From the IMG/VR virus record IMGVR_UViG_3300042485_001768: a DNA stretch of 64,000 nt. One strand, given 5' to 3'. Positions 83 to 17,676 of the stretch are shown here, piece after piece; positions within the stretch are counted from its first letter, which is position 1, and each line of letters opens with the position of its first letter. The stretch comes from a virus (taxonomy: Duplodnaviria > Heunggongvirae > Uroviricota > Caudoviricetes). Under the pieces are notes generated by a model that did not search any database, had not been told where the DNA came from, and saw nothing but the letters and a program-made list of their open reading frames with translations. The position numbers were made by a program, and so were the translations under genes.

Positions 83-154
83 GGCAGTGTAGTTCAGTGG
101 TAGAACAAGAGATTCATACCCTCTATGTCGGTAGTTCAATTCTACCCACTGCCT
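83..154 (+). tRNA. tRNA with CAT anticodon (Met or Ile2)
   Basis: Cloverleaf: acceptor GGCAGTG/CACTGCC, anticodon loop TT-CAT-AC (CAT at 115-117), T-loop TTCAATT. Confidence 0.85.
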
Positions 155-155
155 T

Positions 156-226
156 GTGTCGTTAGCCTAGTGGTAAGGCAGTGGTTTGTGGAACCACCTA
201 GATGGGTTCAATTCCCATACGACACC
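156..226 (+). tRNA. tRNA-His(GTG)
   Basis: Acceptor GTGTCGT/ACGACAC, anticodon stem GTGGT/ACCAC around TT-GTG-GA, C73 discriminator. Confidence 0.9.
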
Positions 227-228
227 CC

Positions 229-307
229 GTTCAGGTGGCAGAGTGGTCGAATGCGGAAGTCTGCAAAACTTCTATTACCGTGGGTTCGAATCCCACCCTG
301 AACTCCA
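229..307 (+). tRNA. tRNA-Cys(GCA)
   Basis: Acceptor GTTCAGG/CCTGAAC, anticodon CT-GCA-AA, U73, encoded CCA. Confidence 0.93.
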
Positions 308-311
308 AAAA

Positions 312-382
312 GTTGGATTGGTGTAACGGTAGCACGACGGTCTCCAAAACCGTTAGTGGGAGTTCAAATCTCTCATCCTTCG
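312..382 (+). tRNA. tRNA-Trp(CCA)
   Basis: Anticodon stem ACGGT/ACCGT around CT-CCA-AA; T-arm GGGAG-TTCAAAT-CTCTC; acceptor has two T-T mismatches. Confidence 0.8.
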
Positions 383-387
383 CCTAT

Positions 388-460
388 GCCCTCGTAACTC
401 AGTGGCTAGAGTATCCGCCTTCTAAGCGGTTAGTCGTAGGTTCGAATCCTACCGAGGGTG
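388..460 (+). tRNA. tRNA-Arg(TCT)
   Basis: Acceptor GCCCTCG/CGAGGGT, anticodon CT-TCT-AA, GGTTCGAATCC T-arm. Confidence 0.93.
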
Positions 461-464
461 CTTT

Positions 465-538
465 GTCCTCTTAACTCAGTGGACCAGAGTGCTTGGCTAC
501 GAACCAAGAAGTCGCAAGTTCAAATCTTGCAGAGGACG
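465..538 (+). tRNA. tRNA-Arg(ACG)
   Basis: Acceptor GTCCTCT/AGAGGAC, anticodon stem CTTGG/CCAAG around CT-ACG-AA. Confidence 0.92.
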
Positions 539-539
539 C

Positions 540-568
540 TTGACAAACTTACAAAAGTTTGTTACTAT
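540..568 (+). promoter_or_regulatory. sigma70-like early promoter
   Basis: TTGACA(540-545)-17 nt-TACTAT(563-568). Confidence 0.65.
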
Positions 569-633
569 ATAATAGTGATAGAGGTTGAGTCCCTGTTACA
601 TCCTTATGAGGTGTATCACACTCAATCCATCAA

Positions 634-708
634 AGTGGGGAAGTGTAACGGTTGCACAGAAGTCTCATAAGCTTCAAGAAGGAGGTTCAATTCCTCCCCC
701 CGCCACCA
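634..708 (+). tRNA. tRNA-Met(CAT), initiator-like 1:72 mismatch
   Basis: Anticodon stem GAAGT/GCTTC around CT-CAT-AA, T-arm GGAGG/CCTCC, A1xC72 unpaired, encoded ACCA. Confidence 0.82.
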
Positions 709-711
709 CAT

Positions 712-784
712 TCCCTTATAGCTCAATTGGCAGAGCACGGAGCTGTTAACTCTGGGGTTCCTGGTTCGAGTCCAGGTGGGGGAG
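712..784 (+). tRNA. tRNA-Asn(GTT)
   Basis: Anticodon CT-GTT-AA, T-arm CCTGG-TTCGAGT-CCAGG, G73. Confidence 0.92.
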
Positions 785-916
785 TTTTAATCTAGGAATA
801 AAATGATTAATATTTTTAAAAAAATCTATTTTAATATAAAAGCATATATTGAATTTAAAAAAGTATCTAAAAAATGTAGAGAAGAAGACCCATACATCTA
901 TAAATAAAACTAAAAA

Positions 917-1687
917 ATGACTAATAATATATTAGTTACATTTGGATGTAGTTGGACTTTTGGTGAAGGATCTGGATATGTTGATGGAATGGATCAAAAT
1001 GAATATGAAGAAATTCAACAGGATGAAAAAATATGTTATGATAATTCTTGGAGAAAAATCATAGTAGATCATTATAATCTTAGACACATAAACTTTTCTG
1101 TTCCAGGAAGTAGCAATCAAAGACAGTTTAAAACTGCTAGGGAATATTTTGTAACAGAAGAATGGAAAAAATTAATTAGTGAACGCAGAAATAATGTTGT
1201 TGTTTTGTGGGGAATTACCAGTACATATAGAAATTATTTTTGGTGTAAAGATACTAATAGATACCAAAACATTTTTTATTCTAAATCTAAATATGATAGA
1301 TACCAAGACAAATTGGCAAAAGCAATGATGTCATGGTCCTATGTTAAAGAGGTTGAGGAAGAAGTTGTAAAAAATGAAATATTATTTTTTAATCAATATT
1401 TTAAATTGGTTGGTGTAAAAAATATGTGGTTTGATACTTTTAATTCTTTAGATTATAAAGAAAAATTTGATAATTTTTTAGATCAATATAAAGAACAGAG
1501 AGATCTTTTATCGATGCTTTGTTATGAACATGCTAGAAAATTAAATGGCAGATTAGTTTTGAATAATAATTTTAAATATGCTGAAGAAAATGGATTAATA
1601 AATTTAATTAGTTTTCATCCTAAAAAAGAACAATATAAAATTATTGGTGAATATTTTATTAGAAAATTGAAAAAATACTTCAAATAA
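917..1687 (+). CDS. SGNH/GDSL-hydrolase-like hypothetical protein
   Basis: FGCSWTFG (block I), PGSSN (block II) and a C-terminal HP motif; paralog at 61329-62201. Confidence 0.55.
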   Translation: MTNNILVTFGCSWTFGEGSGYVDGMDQNEYEEIQQDEKICYDNSWRKIIVDHYNLRHINFSVPGSSNQRQFKTAREYFVTEEWKKLISERRNNVVVLWGITSTYRNYFWCKDTNRYQNIFYSKSKYDRYQDKLAKAMMSWSYVKEVEEEVVKNEILFFNQYFKLVGVKNMWFDTFNSLDYKEKFDNFLDQYKEQRDLLSMLCYEHARKLNGRLVLNNNFKYAEENGLINLISFHPKKEQYKIIGEYFIRKLKKYFK

Positions 1688-1699
1688 ATCAATAAATAG

Positions 1700-1728
1700 T
1701 TGACAAAATAATTTGTCTCTGTTAAAAT
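1700..1728 (+). promoter_or_regulatory. sigma70-like promoter for tRNA-Val
   Basis: TTGACA-17 nt-TAAAAT. Confidence 0.6.
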
Positions 1729-1737
1729 AAAATCATC

Positions 1738-1809
1738 GGGCGATTAACTCAGCGGTAGAGTGGCCTCCTTACAAGTGGTAAGTCACTGGTTCGATTCCAG
1801 TATCGCCCA
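1738..1809 (+). tRNA. tRNA-Val(TAC)
   Basis: Acceptor GGGCGAT/ATCGCCC, anticodon CT-TAC-AA, A73. Confidence 0.9.
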
Positions 1810-1835
1810 TATATAAAATGAAGCATATATAACTT

Positions 1836-2012
1836 ATGAAAGATAAAAAATTCAAAAAATTAATTCAAAAACCTTTAAGATTTCATCATCAAGATATCCA
1901 TGAAGAACTTGATAGTATTAAATTATCATTAGCAGATATTAGGAGATTAATGGAAAATGTTAGTAGTGAGATGCAAAGATTGCAACAAAGAGTTGACAAG
2001 TCATCCATCTAA
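1836..2012 (+). CDS. small hypothetical protein (58 aa)
   Basis: ATG-TAA ORF MKDKKFKKLIQKPLRFHHQDIHEEL..., read directly from the sequence. Confidence 0.5.
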   Translation: MKDKKFKKLIQKPLRFHHQDIHEELDSIKLSLADIRRLMENVSSEMQRLQQRVDKSSI

Positions 2013-2214
2013 AACTCAGTGTTGTGGATGTTCTAATATGATGACTGTCTGTGCTGATAACATATCAGCCATTGATTTAACTAAAGTAATTATTATTAAT
2101 TCAAATAATAAAAAACCTCATAAAAAAACAAGTTTATTTTCTCCAGAAGAACTTGAGTATCAAGAATCTAGAAGAAAAAGAAAAGTTCGCAAATTAGATT
2201 TTGAAATACGTTAA
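1957..2214 (+). CDS. hypothetical protein with Zn-ribbon-like Cys pairs
   Basis: CKDC...CCGC motif, basic C-terminus. Confidence 0.65.
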   Translation: MLVVRCKDCNKELTSHPSKTQCCGCSNMMTVCADNISAIDLTKVIIINSNNKKPHKKTSLFSPEELEYQESRRKRKVRKLDFEIR

Positions 2215-2254
2215 ATCTTAACTAAATAAGAAAATAAAGTTTTCTTATTAACTT

Positions 2255-2341
2255 GGAAGGGCAATCCGATTGGCGACGGAACCTGTCTTGAAAACAGTTG
2301 AGGTGTTAAAGCCCTTGGGGGTTCGACTCCCCCTCCTTCCG
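2255..2341 (+). tRNA. tRNA-Ser(TGA)
   Basis: Long variable arm, anticodon CT-TGA-AA, acceptor GGAAGGG/TCCTTCC, G73. Confidence 0.92.
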
Positions 2342-2440
2342 TTTAACAATTTTTTAATTTGTGTTATAAAATGAACACAATACATTGACGTTTAAAAATT
2401 AAAAACTATTATATAGTAGTACAACTACTTATAAACCCCA

Positions 2441-2596
2441 ATGGATGATCATACTTACCAAAATTGGGTGAAGATTAAAGAAACCTTTGAGTCTTCTGGT
2501 AATACAAATAACATGTTTTATCGTAGGGCCTGTGAAATAGTAAAAACTAAAAGAGACCCTTTAGCAAAGTTTTTTGGTGATACTAATAATGGATAA
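2441..2596 (+). CDS. small hypothetical protein (51 aa)
   Basis: ORF MDDHTYQNWVKIKETFESSGNTNNMFYRRACEIV... downstream of a TTGACG/TATTAT promoter-like pair. Confidence 0.55.
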   Translation: MDDHTYQNWVKIKETFESSGNTNNMFYRRACEIVKTKRDPLAKFFGDTNNG

Positions 2597-2675
2597 AACA
2601 ATTATATCTGCAATAATAATTTTTACATTAATTGGTTTATTCATCAGATGGGGACTTACAAACGCATATGCGTAA
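2589..2675 (+). CDS. 28-aa single-TM peptide
   Basis: MDKTIISAIIIFTLIGLFIRWGLTNAYA; overlaps the previous stop codon. Confidence 0.4.
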   Translation: MDKTIISAIIIFTLIGLFIRWGLTNAYA

Positions 2676-2702
2676 GTAAAGATAATTTAAATGGAGAGAA
2701 AG

Positions 2703-2819
2703 ATGATTTTTCATATTGTAGAGACTCTTGCAGCGAGTCCAGTTTGGTTGTTCTTTTGCGGTTTTGGCTTGACAGTTGTTCCTTTTATGGGTATAATGAT
2801 TATACACCGAGATAAATAA
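2703..2819 (+). CDS. 38-aa hydrophobic peptide
   Basis: MIFHIVETLAASPVWLFFCGFGLTVVPFMGIMIIHRDK. Confidence 0.45.
   Translation: MIFHIVETLAASPVWLFFCGFGLTVVPFMGIMIIHRDK
2769..2797 (+). promoter_or_regulatory. perfect-consensus sigma70 promoter for tRNA-Pro
   Basis: TTGACA-17 nt-TATAAT. Confidence 0.8.
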
Positions 2820-2827
2820 TCTTATTA

Positions 2828-2901
2828 CGGGGTGTAGCTCAGTTTGGTAGAGCACTGCTTTTGGGAAGCAGGGGCCGTAGGTTCGAATCCTATCACCCCG
2901 A
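2828..2901 (+). tRNA. tRNA-Pro(TGG)
   Basis: CGGGGTG/CACCCCG acceptor, anticodon TT-TGG-GA. Confidence 0.93.
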
Positions 2902-3105
2902 TTAGTAAAATCTTTGTAATTTTACTATTTAAATTTTAGTTAATGATTTTTTTAAATGGAATCACAACAGGAAATTTCTAAAATTGAATCTATAGATTTT
3001 ACTAATGAGTCAAGTAAAGATGCATCAGAGACAGATATCAAAGAGTTGATAGAGGTCTTGACAAACCACAACGATGCATGTTAACTTTGATTTGTTGAAA
3101 CACAC

Positions 3106-3180
3106 GGGACTGTCGCCTATTGGTTAAGGCCCACTGCTTATAACGGTGTGAACTGAGTTCAATTCTCAGCAGTCCTACCA
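3106..3180 (+). tRNA. tRNA-Ile(TAT), copy 1
   Basis: Anticodon stem CACTG/CGGTG around CT-TAT-AA; encoded ACCA. Confidence 0.88.
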
Positions 3181-3181
3181 A

Positions 3182-3253
3182 GGGAGTATAGCTTAATGGT
3201 TAGAGCGGCCTGCTTATAACGGGTTAGTCTGGGTTCAACTCCCAGTATTCCTA
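3182..3253 (+). tRNA. tRNA-Ile(TAT), copy 2
   Basis: Anticodon stem GCCTG/CGGGT around CT-TAT-AA; T-arm CTGGG/CCCAG. Confidence 0.88.
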
Positions 3254-3282
3254 TTGCTATTCGCTATTTGCGAATAACGAAT

Positions 3283-3355
3283 GCTCGTTTAGCCATCTGG
3301 TGAAGGCAGCGAACTCATAATTCGCCTCAGGAGAGTTCGATCCTCTCAACGAGCA
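3283..3355 (+). tRNA. tRNA-Met(CAT), third CAT tRNA
   Basis: Acceptor GCTCGTT/AACGAGC, anticodon stem GCGAA/TTCGC around CT-CAT-AA. Confidence 0.88.
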
Positions 3356-3381
3356 CTCGGACAGAATTTAATCTGTCCATC

Positions 3382-16018: not shown

Positions 16019-16043
16019 AAGGAGGGTTTATCCCTCCTTTTTT
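16019..16043 (+). terminator. intrinsic terminator followed by late-promoter-like ATAAATA
   Basis: AGGAGGG/CCCTCCT stem plus T-run. Confidence 0.7.
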
Positions 16044-16074
16044 AATAAATATAATGCAGGGTTTGGATACTATA

Positions 16075-16773
16075 ATGCTCATCGATCTTCACAATTTTTT
16101 TAAACACTTTGATGAAAATAATCCAAAGCATGTTGCTGCGGTAGAACAATTTGAAAAAGATTTGCTTTTAAAGGCACACGAATTGATGCAAGACGAAGCA
16201 AATTGGGTAAGGATTTTTAGAACAAAAGAGAACAAACCCCAAGCAACTATTTTACCAGTTCCTTTTTATCCACAAACAGATAACTATAGAGATGCAAATA
16301 GAACCTGCAACTCTTCTGCTTGTGCAATGTGTCTTGAGTATTTCAAACCTGGCACACTAAAAGGACCTAAGGGCGATGACGCCTATGTACAAAAAGTTTT
16401 TTCAATTGGTGACACAACTGATCACCTGGTTCAAACCAAAGTTCTTGCGTCATACGGTATTAAATCCAGTTTTTCCTACAGCCTTACTTTTGCTGATCTT
16501 GATAGAGAGCTTGCCGCTGGTAGACCTGTTGTTATTGGCATTCTTCATCGCGGGACTTTATCTAATCCCACAGGAGGACACATGGTAGTGGTGATTGGTA
16601 AGACACCTTCTGGTGATTATGTCGTTAATGACCCTTATGGATCATTAAATGATGGATATACTGGTTCCGTGAACAATGGTAAGGGTGCTGTTTACAAACG
16701 TTCCGAATTATCTCGTAGATGGTGCCCTAAAGGTAATGATGGTTGGGGTAGAATTTTTGATGTAAAAAAGTAG
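16075..16773 (+). CDS. peptidase C39-like protein (zero-frame product of the lysis gene)
   Basis: QTDN...TCNSSACAM, GGHMVVVIG, VNDPYG (Cys/His/Asp). Confidence 0.85.
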   Translation: MLIDLHNFFKHFDENNPKHVAAVEQFEKDLLLKAHELMQDEANWVRIFRTKENKPQATILPVPFYPQTDNYRDANRTCNSSACAMCLEYFKPGTLKGPKGDDAYVQKVFSIGDTTDHLVQTKVLASYGIKSSFSYSLTFADLDRELAAGRPVVIGILHRGTLSNPTGGHMVVVIGKTPSGDYVVNDPYGSLNDGYTGSVNNGKGAVYKRSELSRRWCPKGNDGWGRIFDVKK

Positions 16774-16836
16774 AATCAACATCACAATCAAAAATCCCTC
16801 AATGTGGTGTTGATTTAATTAGAGAGTTTGAGGGAT
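16764..16836 (+). promoter_or_regulatory. candidate -1 programmed ribosomal frameshift signal (A_AAA_AAG plus H-type pseudoknot)
   Basis: In-frame heptamer at 16764-16770; stem1 16774-16786/16803-16815 (13 bp, one G-U); stem2 16794-16802/16828-16836 (9 bp). Confidence 0.85.
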
Positions 16837-17252
16837 GTCACTTGAATGCTTATCCAGACCCACTAACTGGTGGACTTCCAATTACAATTGGTTGGGGTTC
16901 TACTAAAGATTTTGATGGTAAATCTTTTAAATTGGGTAGAAAAATTACTCAAGAATATGCAGATAAATTATTGTTATTTGACCTTGAACAAAGATTTCTT
17001 CCTTCATTGCAAAAAATACCTTATTGGAGCGAAATGAATGACAACCAACGTGGAGCACTTCTCAGCTTTGCTTATAATCTCGGTGCTGGCTTCTATGGTA
17101 ACAGCAATTTCAATACTATTACCCGCAATCTACGTGAGAAGAATTGGAAAGCAATCCCAAAAACATTAGAGATGTATCGTAATCCTGGTAGTAAAGTTGA
17201 AGCAGGATTACTTAGAAGAAGAAAAGCGGAGGGTAAACTCTGGGTTTCTTAA
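16770..17252 (+). CDS. GH24 (phage-type) lysozyme domain, -1 frame continuation with no start codon of its own
   Basis: Frame opens at 16761: ...KIPQCGVDLIREFEGCHLNAYPDP...TIGWG...LLSFAYNLG...GLLRRRKAE; the catalytic Glu lies upstream of the track's TTG start. Confidence 0.88.
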   Translation, partial: VESTSQSKIPQCGVDLIREFEGCHLNAYPDPLTGGLPITIGWGSTKDFDGKSFKLGRKITQEYADKLLLFDLEQRFLPSLQKIPYWSEMNDNQRGALLSFAYNLGAGFYGNSNFNTITRNLREKNWKAIPKTLEMYRNPGSKVEAGLLRRRKAEGKLWVS

Positions 17253-17485
17253 TCTTCTACCTTTGTTCGTAGAGCGATTACTGTAGTTAGAATTGCTAAT
17301 AGAGTTTCATATCCTCTTCTCTCAGATTCTTTACAATCTAAGGGAGGAGGATTTTTTAGTTTTCCTAATGCATTTGCAGCATTGATTGACCCTGGAAACA
17401 TAAAGTTACATGAAATAAAATTAATTCCAACAAATCCAATAGCGGAGAAACAAACTATAAAGATAAGTTTGGTTAGATTAAGTTT
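17249..17485 (-). CDS. two-TM small membrane protein (holin candidate)
   Basis: MKLNLTKLIFIVCFSAIGFVGINF...LLAILTTVIALRTKVED; converges on the lysozyme. Confidence 0.55.
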   Translation of the reverse strand, partial: KLNLTKLIFIVCFSAIGFVGINFISCNFMFPGSINAANALGKLKNPPPLDCKESERRGYETLLAILTTVIALRTKVED

Positions 17486-17676
17486 CATCTTCCTTCTTGA
17501 CGATGAATCCAGGTTTTGAGTTCGTGTAAATATGTTCTTAATATTTGTGCTTGTTCTTGATGCCAAAAATCACCCGTCTCCAACCAGAGACGGGTGTGAT
17601 TATCTATTGCCTTAAGTATTTGGTGGATAGGAGCATTCCAACACTCCCTTTTTGGAGTGTTCCACTCTCTGGGCAT
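17485..17676 (-). CDS. hypothetical protein
   Basis: MPREWNTPKRECWNAPIHQILKAIDNH...; stop overlaps the next start. Confidence 0.65.
   Translation of the reverse strand: MPREWNTPKRECWNAPIHQILKAIDNHTRLWLETGDFWHQEQAQILRTYLHELKTWIHRQEGR

Follow-up and report, generated by a model that had tools for sequence, protein, structure and literature searches.

The stretch of DNA considered here (the window) comprises 64,000 nucleotides (nt) of IMG/VR record IMGVR_UViG_3300042485_001768, from a T4-like (Kyanoviridae) freshwater cyanophage of a lake-water metagenome. Between positions 16,075 and 17,252 it encodes a cysteine peptidase and a lysozyme in two different reading frames. It is highly probable that the two are joined by a programmed -1 ribosomal frameshift at the slippery heptamer A_AAA_AAG, stimulated by a hairpin in the mRNA, and that a single gene would in this way yield both a 232-amino-acid (aa) peptidase and a 392-aa peptidase-lysozyme. 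As judged by comparison of genomes, the lysozyme is very probably made solely by way of this slip in the window, in S-PM2 (a model phage) and in some 50 distinct relatives. The core of this reading, a -1 shift at A_AAA_AAG that gives a peptidase and a peptidase-muramidase, was put forward in a first-pass annotation of the DNA and now has strong comparative support. This support draws on several lines: it comes from the conservation of the heptamer at synonymous sites, from the association of a downstream hairpin with lysozyme genes that have no start codon, from the intactness of the -1 frames, from natural in-frame fusions collinear with the predicted product, and from assemblies in which the junction is unchanged.

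Reading frames and protein domains at the junction

The zero-frame open reading frame (ORF; 16075..16773, plus strand, 232 aa) encodes an N-terminal module of about 55 aa followed by a C39_2-like cysteine peptidase, and it ends with GAT GTA AAA AAG TAG. The heptamer (16764..16770) is placed in the X_XXY_YYZ phase of this frame and is adjoined by the TAG stop (16771..16773). The -1 frame is closed by a TGA at 16758-16760, is open from 16761 and reads C-K-K-V-E-S-T-S-Q-S-K-I-P-Q-C-G-V-D-L-I-R-E-F-E-G into the lysozyme; the continuation past the heptamer (16770..17252, plus strand, 160 codons, stop TAA at 17250-17252) comprises a linker and a GH24 lysozyme without a start of its own. When the sequence was re-read, the coordinates previously assigned to heptamer, frame and stop proved exact in every case, and the two product lengths were correct. 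The zero-frame homologs begin with M-x-I-D/E-L/F-x-N-F-F, and the start is for this reason placed at ATG 16075 and not at TTG 16012.

The catalytic Glu of the lysozyme E...D...T motif, located by alignment to solved lysozymes, is encoded by GAG at 16830..16832. As the first-pass annotation had stated, no ATG, GTG or TTG is present in the -1 frame 5' of this codon, and the first such triplet is the TTG at 16842..16844, which lies 3' of the catalytic Glu codon and is the start chosen by the mechanical ORF list. A Shine-Dalgarno (SD)-like GAGGGA, formed by the catalytic E-G codons (within 16830-16844), sits 6 nt 5' of this TTG and is probably the reason why gene callers place a 'lysin' start there. 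Solved GH24 enzymes match the -1 product with E values down to 4e-15 in alignments that begin at residue 12-14, and a start at TTG 16842 would therefore remove the helix that carries the catalytic Glu. The TTG is a mis-call, as was implied by the earlier remark that it would give a dead enzyme.

Pfam matches agree with the domains first proposed, a C39-like peptidase and a GH24 lysozyme. The zero-frame product matches Peptidase_C39_2 (PF13529; E 3.7e-13, residues 60-188, 50.7 bits against a cut-off of 24), and the -1 product matches Phage_lysozyme (PF00959; E 1.4e-24) over profile positions 2-125 of 125. The peptidase motifs C-N-S-S-x-C-A-M and G-G-H are invariant across 15 fusions; which of its residues are catalytic, and what its substrate is, we infer. 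A sequence search of the peptidase against solved structures gave no match, and an AlphaFold2 model of one natural in-frame fusion (L107), built on a 15-sequence alignment, reached a mean predicted local distance difference test score of 56.7, too poor for a fold search. The profile of PHROG 3617 (405 positions) is matched by the zero frame at 1-235 and by the -1 frame at 241-404, and natural in-frame peptidase-lysozyme fusions are collinear with the predicted 392-aa trans-frame product; the fusion is thus a real and widespread type of protein. PHROG labels related families as endolysins, and in the nearest relative that is 77% complete PF00959 is matched solely at the copy of this locus.

Conservation of the heptamer among relatives

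A blastn search of isolate phages matched the locus in 59 Synechococcus phage records, and 185 loci came from three scans of IMG/VR. The isolate records and the first two of these scans, with identical junctions collapsed, supplied the 100 distinct junctions that were classified; sporadic in-frame TTG or GTG codons in the linkers were not counted as starts because their position is not conserved. The lysozyme has no start in 53 of these junctions. All 53 have a heptamer in phase, which is AAAAAAG in 52 and TTTTTTT in one (phage S-CAM7), so that the conservation looked for among homologs, as the first-pass annotation had proposed, is found. The codon before AAA AAG is GTA in 25, GCA in 23, ACA in three and GAA in one, that is, the residue varies between V, A, T and E while the third base is always A, and the Lys-Lys pair of the A-type junctions is invariably written AAA AAG. 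The zero-frame stop follows the heptamer directly in 47/53 junctions, one codon later in five and two codons later in one. The -1 ORF is intact, with 158-174 codons, in 51/51 loci complete within their contigs, and the E...D...T motif is present in 52/53 start-less junction types. Peptidase genes without a downstream lysozyme end in FQP*, FS*, FN*, FDIKP* or FDVK*, and the heptamer is absent from them. The heptamer is conserved beyond what the protein needs, in that its synonymous sites are fixed and it is lost where no lysozyme follows.

Two of the start-less examples are from isolates whose annotation can be compared. In S-PM2 (two independent records) the peptidase ends with GCA AAA AAG TAA and is followed by a start-less -1 lysozyme, of which GenBank annotates just a 219-nt 'putative lysin'. 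The 'lysin' of S-CAM7 (L087, 1700-1760, NC_031927) is likewise a truncated ORF; here the peptidase ends with GTT TTT TTT CCA CAG TAG, U_UUU_UUU is in phase, the -1 lysozyme is start-less, and an 8-bp hairpin lies 5 nt after the heptamer. This arrangement is kept in a relative of 88% identity (L177 and L178 belong to the same group).

The remaining junctions reach the lysozyme by other routes. Six have an ATG or GTG lysozyme start that overlaps the peptidase stop (ATGA or GTGA overlaps with a separate lysozyme are seen in L002, L048, L061, L072 and L082), and five of these six already possess the slippery Lys-Lys codons, without the hairpin. Other relatives encode a lysozyme with its own N-terminal domain and start, and a marine clade that includes phage ACG-2014f has plain in-frame fusions. 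The first-pass annotation had regarded homologs that are simple in-frame fusions as an argument against recoding; they are indeed found, in the distant marine clade only, and do not contradict a frameshift in the window.

The downstream hairpin

The minimum free energy structure after the heptamer is a hairpin of 14 base pairs (bp) with a 16-nt loop (16773..16816, plus strand; 16773-16786 paired with 16803-16816), the G/C-containing core of which begins about 6 nt after the heptamer. This is stem 1 of the first-pass annotation (16774-86 with 16803-15), as described there and extended to 14 bp by a G-U pair between 16773 and 16816. Folding was assessed as z-scores against dinucleotide shuffles. 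For the 65 nt after the heptamer, the 53 start-less junctions have a median folding energy of -17.2 kcal/mol and a median z of -2.8, with 79% below -2. The same measure gives z of about 0 in the six junctions with ATGA or GTGA starts, in nine in-frame fusions without the heptamer and in three own-start genes without the heptamer. The hairpin therefore goes together with dependence on the heptamer.

In the window's clade (alignment A1, 22 sequences) 97% of the stem 1 cells are paired. Of the 14 pairs, four are altered in both partners, a number reached by none of 500 shuffles, and the covariation that had been suggested as a check on stem 1 is accordingly present as compensatory double changes. 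Sliding the 3' partners by 1-3 columns lowers pairing to 35-47%. In other clades about ten unrelated stem sequences are found at the same position, with G/C-rich cores about 5-8 nt after the heptamer. The 5' and 3' arms are AATCAACATCACA and TGTGGTGTTGATT in the window, AGCTCTACT and AGTAGAGCT in S-PM2, and GTAGAACC and GGTTCTAC in S-CAM7; further clades have AACGCCAACTAA with TTAGTTGGCGTT, CCCCACTAT with ATAGTGGGG, and AGAGGCATCAC with GTGGTGTCTCT. The 3' arm consists of conserved lysozyme codons, and the 5' arm lies in a linker with no conservation of amino acids, as would be expected if selection acts on the RNA and not on the protein. An Rfam search of 16600-17000 gave no meaningful match.

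Several observations weigh against this account. The evidence for the frameshift is wholly comparative. The hairpin of the window, taken alone, is not significant by single-sequence shuffling (z -1.69), and in a second hairpin class (stems of the GCCAACTAA type, alignment A3, nine sequences) covariation is not significant, because the stem barely varies. Stem 1 starts only 2-3 nt after the heptamer, and its lowest pairs would therefore be melted during slippage. An upstream SD-like stimulator was sought across the relatives, and none is conserved beyond TGGGG, a Trp-Gly sequence forced by the protein about 15 nt 5' of the heptamer; the neighbouring third codon positions vary freely. In addition, A_AAA_AAG is most efficient where the sole lysine tRNA is tRNA-Lys(UUU), and the tRNA set of the host bears on this; neither the window nor the nearest record (G001) was found to contain a phage tRNA-Lys. 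The window does carry 14 tRNA genes, clustered at 83-3356, among them three tRNA-Met(CAT) and two tRNA-Ile(TAT).

A candidate pseudoknot

The loop of stem 1 can pair with downstream sequence to form a candidate stem 2 of 9 perfect bp (16794..16836, plus strand; 16794-16802 with 16828-16836), which together with stem 1 would make an H-type pseudoknot. Its loops would be 7 nt (L1), 0 nt (L2) and 11-12 nt (L3), lengths that look feasible by analogy with known pseudoknots. The duplex between loop and downstream sequence has an energy of -14.6 kcal/mol (z -3.5), and 0.7% of shuffled loops are as low. In the clade alignment 95.5% of stem 2 cells are paired. Both arms lie in coding sequence, the 5' arm in I-P-Q and the 3' arm in F-E-G, and stem 2 would sequester the SD-like GAGGGA motif.

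Synonymous sites were analysed in 25 distinct members of the window's clade. The catalytic Glu codon is GAG over GAA by 24:1, compared with GAA 76 : GAG 44 over five other conserved Glu positions; the Pro codon of stem 2 is CCT by 24:1 (0.24 bits), whereas seven other Pro positions have values of 0.76-1.69 bits. Variation in the codons between the stems (L-I-K-E) is at the background level, and a few other three-codon windows in the gene are as constrained as stem 2. The constraint on stem 2 is therefore suggestive and not decisive.

Other results speak against the second stem. No compensatory double change is found in stem 2 in the clade alignment; four of its pairs vary on one side only, to wobble, and in some sequences three are broken. 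Relatives whose L1 is 1 nt long (L139, L144) have an imperfect stem 2. In S-PM2, S-CAM7 and the other hairpin classes, pairing of the loop with downstream sequence stays within chance, and the only sequence outside the window's clade in which it exceeds chance is L41. Several other frameshift clades have plain hairpins with loops of 8-11 nt. Since stem 2 is absent outside the clade and the loops of other clades are short, the conserved stimulator is the stem-loop. The H-type pseudoknot of the first-pass annotation is thus borne out in part: the 9-bp complementarity with its loops and the covariation of stem 1 stand, and stem 2 has no double changes and is confined to one clade. It is best seen as a plausible but somewhat doubtful addition specific to that clade.

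Proposed mechanism and alternative explanations

Ribosomes would start at ATG 16075 and translate the N-terminal module and the C39_2-like cysteine peptidase. With lysine tRNAs on AAA in the P site and AAG in the A site, the stem 1 hairpin would stand at the mRNA entrance; a fraction of the ribosomes would then slip with both tRNAs simultaneously one base back, so that A_AAA_AAG is read as AAA_AAA, with the hairpin, and perhaps the adjacent stop, as stimulator. Slipped ribosomes would continue with GTA GAA TCA and add the linker and the GH24 lysozyme to give 392 aa, and those that do not slip would stop at TAG 16771 with the 232-aa peptidase as product. In the window's clade, pairing of the loop with the codons around the catalytic Glu may form a pseudoknot and raise the efficiency. 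We infer the occurrence and the efficiency of slippage, the formation of stem 2, and the role of the product as an endolysin or a virion-associated wall hydrolase. The first-pass annotation had further proposed that the shift controls the dosage or timing of an endolysin, which goes beyond the evidence: viable relatives range from separate genes, which yield no fused product, to in-frame fusions, in which the whole product is fused, and a fixed ratio may therefore not be essential.

One alternative is that nothing is recoded, and that an A is missing from the assembly or the gene was recently frameshifted and has left only a non-functional lysozyme behind. Assemblies often contain indel errors in homopolymers, and one added A would restore a single ORF, as it does in the natural sequences L107-L111. 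This is nevertheless extremely unlikely. Contigs from three independent studies (runs X7, X8 and X14; 2020-2024) span 16764-16773 with no differences and no indels reported; the three assemblies are identical base for base, which settles the concern over a missing A raised with the first-pass annotation. More than 50 distinct sequences, diverging to about 60% protein identity, have the same frames, an intact lysozyme ORF and the catalytic motif, and elsewhere in the lysozyme synonymous sites are well randomised while the protein is conserved. A single RNA-library contig (X19, from a relative) ends at 16679, upstream of the heptamer.

The same run of A could act at transcription, if the polymerase added an A within the A6 run and part of the mRNAs encoded an in-frame fusion. 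In its favour, the site is homopolymeric, the run of S-CAM7 is T8, and the A7 in-frame variants L107-L111 demonstrate that run length changes in evolution. Efficient transcriptional slippage in bacteria, however, is known from runs of about nine or more, and here the run has just six A. The seventh base is G in 52/52 A-type sites, although a longer A-run would favour slippage; the X_XXY_YYZ phase is fixed, which is irrelevant to a polymerase; and the downstream hairpin, found at start-less loci only, is untranscribed while the polymerase sits at the run. Transcriptional slippage is on these grounds very unlikely. Nor is it at all probable that the lysozyme is translated separately, from a non-canonical start or by termination and reinitiation after the TAG, with no fusion formed. 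Close relatives do use ATGA or GTGA stop-start coupling, and sporadic TTG, GTG or ATG codons occur in the linkers of some start-less relatives. These start-like codons are not positionally conserved, many of them lying 5 codons before the catalytic Glu, and the window has none before that residue; a 14-bp helix just after the stop is unfavourable for initiation, and separate translation would leave both heptamer and hairpin unexplained.

Evolution of the junction

A tree of the peptidase domain (100 rows, quick IQ-TREE) separates a marine clade of mostly in-frame forms (support 99) from a large one dominated by the frameshift type, among whose frameshift junctions peptidase-only, stop-overlap and separate-gene forms are scattered. 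The tree calls for at least 28 changes of architecture. S-CAM7 sits among in-frame fusions, on a long branch, which suggests that its U_UUU_UUU frameshift has an independent origin. Near-identical peptidases may carry different hairpin classes (e.g. L018 and L023; peptidase 91-95% and lysozyme 77-86% identity), a pattern that suggests recombination at the junction between the two domains. A plausible path to the frameshift leads from coupled genes through loss of the lysozyme start to dependence on slippage and then to gain of the hairpin, since most stop-overlap junctions have the Lys-Lys codons already and no hairpin.

In some lineages the two domains stand in one frame and the signal is still kept. 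L107 and L111, both in frame with A7, lie inside frameshift clades (support 99 and 98). A7 replaces A6 in L107-L111 (in L107-L110 at 2182-2202), L112 has an indel after the heptamer, and the hairpin is kept in all of them. Twenty DNA runs from 16 studies contain the A7 junction of L107 at full share (six sampled words); all are possible sources of the contig, no RNA run was listed for the junction, and this variant is probably genuine and not an error. In ACG-2014f (L086, about 1676-1720, KJ019155; also L089-L092) a 405-aa in-frame fusion has GCA AAA AAG in phase, a 6-bp hairpin (GGAGGG / CCCTCC) 5 nt downstream, and a -1 frame that reads AAA AAA GTC TGA; heptamer and hairpin are both absent from the sister in-frame fusions L093-L106. 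In L107, L111, L112 and the ACG-2014f clade, heptamer and hairpin are thus kept and a -1 stop follows directly or soon after. A slip in these phages would, on this hypothesis, truncate the fusion to the peptidase alone, in the manner of dnaX.

It is conceivable, though rather unlikely, that the locus is under selection for two isoforms, peptidase and peptidase-lysozyme, and that recoding has repeatedly re-evolved to supply them. Selection of this kind may link the A_AAA_AAG extension of most freshwater lineages, the U_UUU_UUU site of S-CAM7 derived from an in-frame ancestor, and the dnaX-like truncation in others, and the window's clade may have added a pseudoknot that tunes the ratio. Stoichiometric control of two isoforms, if true, would be more in keeping with a virion-borne complex that pierces the wall than with a soluble endolysin.

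Relation to known recoding systems

The mechanism seems to be of the textbook dnaX/IS3 type, and no earlier publication seems to describe it as a means of joining two peptidoglycan hydrolase domains. In Escherichia coli dnaX (tau/gamma), as here, A_AAA_AAG is followed within a few nt by a stem-loop, and two products share their N-terminal part. The dnaX shift truncates the protein, whereas the shift considered here would add a whole catalytic domain; dnaX also has an SD-like stimulator 10 nt before the heptamer, for which no conserved counterpart exists at this locus, and the zero-frame stop directly adjoins the heptamer here, unlike in dnaX. A dnaX-like truncating layout seems to be present in the ACG-2014f clade, L107, L111 and L112. 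The insertion sequences of the IS3 family (IS911, IS150, IS3) resemble the locus in having A_AAA_AAG near the end of the upstream ORF and in making an OrfAB fusion beside a short product. Their downstream structure is a hairpin or a pseudoknot, whereas a hairpin is found here and the pseudoknot is a candidate; their product is a transposase, whereas the proteins here are cell-wall hydrolases of a lytic phage, with no sequence relationship.

Among phages, the tail-assembly chaperones (lambda G/GT, P2 E/E+E') likewise have a conserved -1 shift that gives a short and an extended protein, the P2 case being quoted in PMC3931495. There the shift sets the ratio of the products, and its position is conserved across phages with little sequence similarity. 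The heptamers differ (G_GGA_AAG, T-runs) and are usually without strong downstream structure, and the products are structural chaperones, whereas enzymes are made here. A full-text literature search found no description of a peptidase-lysozyme frameshift; the sole mention that it returned of a slippery sequence in connection with a lysin concerns Alteromonas phage vB_AspP-H4/4, for which a putative -1 frameshift between endolysin and internal virion protein genes is reported (PMC5658483). The likeness lies in a slippery sequence that involves a phage lysin gene; the case is a prediction of one sentence in the genome announcement of a podovirus, the partner is not a second hydrolase, and comparative evidence is not given (PMC5658483). 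The same two catalytic domains with the N-terminal module occur in the ACG-2014f protein AIX44838 (405 aa) and, in reversed order, in S-CREM1 UYA57466. The marine single-ORF fusions are made by ordinary translation, most of them without heptamer and hairpin, whereas a frameshift would be used here.

The genes with which T4-like cyanophages lyse cells and degrade walls have been little characterised, and the annotated 'lysin' ORFs of S-PM2 and S-CAM7 are without the catalytic Glu. Taking the frameshift into account corrects the gene model of a widespread family, with about 50 distinct junctions, many from lake metagenomes, and adds a well-supported enzyme-fusing case to the few -1 recoding events of bacteria and phages, mostly dnaX, insertion elements and tail chaperones. 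The locus also offers a natural series for the origin and tuning of frameshift signals, from separate genes through stop-start overlap, hairpin frameshift and possible pseudoknot up to fusion in one frame. Predicted bifunctional enzymes of this kind would escape automated annotation and the mining of genomes for endolysins.

Gene context and other domain arrangements

Judged by its surroundings, the peptidase-lysozyme gene appears to be a unit of its own. A terminator-like hairpin (GGAGGG / CCCTCC followed by a T-run; 16021..16043, plus strand) lies 3' of the peroxiredoxin gene upstream. It was read from the sequence and is not listed by a consensus scan of the window, and it would presumably end transcription. 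It is followed by AATAAATA (16044..16051, plus strand; 24 nt 5' of the ATG), also read from the sequence, which resembles the T4-type late promoter TATAAATA and which, from general knowledge of T4-like phages, we take to be a putative late promoter. On the other side, a convergent ORF of 105 codons with a hydrophobic segment (17249-17566, minus strand) overlaps the lysozyme stop, and an 11-bp terminator-like hairpin (17596-17571, minus strand) lies on the 3' side of the lysozyme gene. The DNA immediately past the lysozyme stop of the window is conserved with S-PM2.

The N-terminal module of about 50 aa (M-x-I-D-L-H-N-F-F-K...W-x-x-I-Y/F-R) that heads the peptidase of the window (16075-16239) is without a Pfam family. 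In phage DSL-LC03 (L004; 1492-2163 and 2265-2933) the same module (M-x-I-D-L-H-N-F-F-K...) also heads a separately encoded lysozyme, and in L113, L125-L135 and L149 the separately started lysozyme has a different N-terminal domain of about 60 aa. In S-CREM1 (L003, 1497-2678) the order is reversed, with the lysozyme followed by the N-terminal module and the peptidase in a single 393-aa ORF that matches PHROG 10051. In L026 (about 2700) the hairpin (AATGCC / GGCATT) has undergone a compensatory C-to-T change, through which an in-frame ATG, a possible incidental start, now stands 5 nt past the heptamer.

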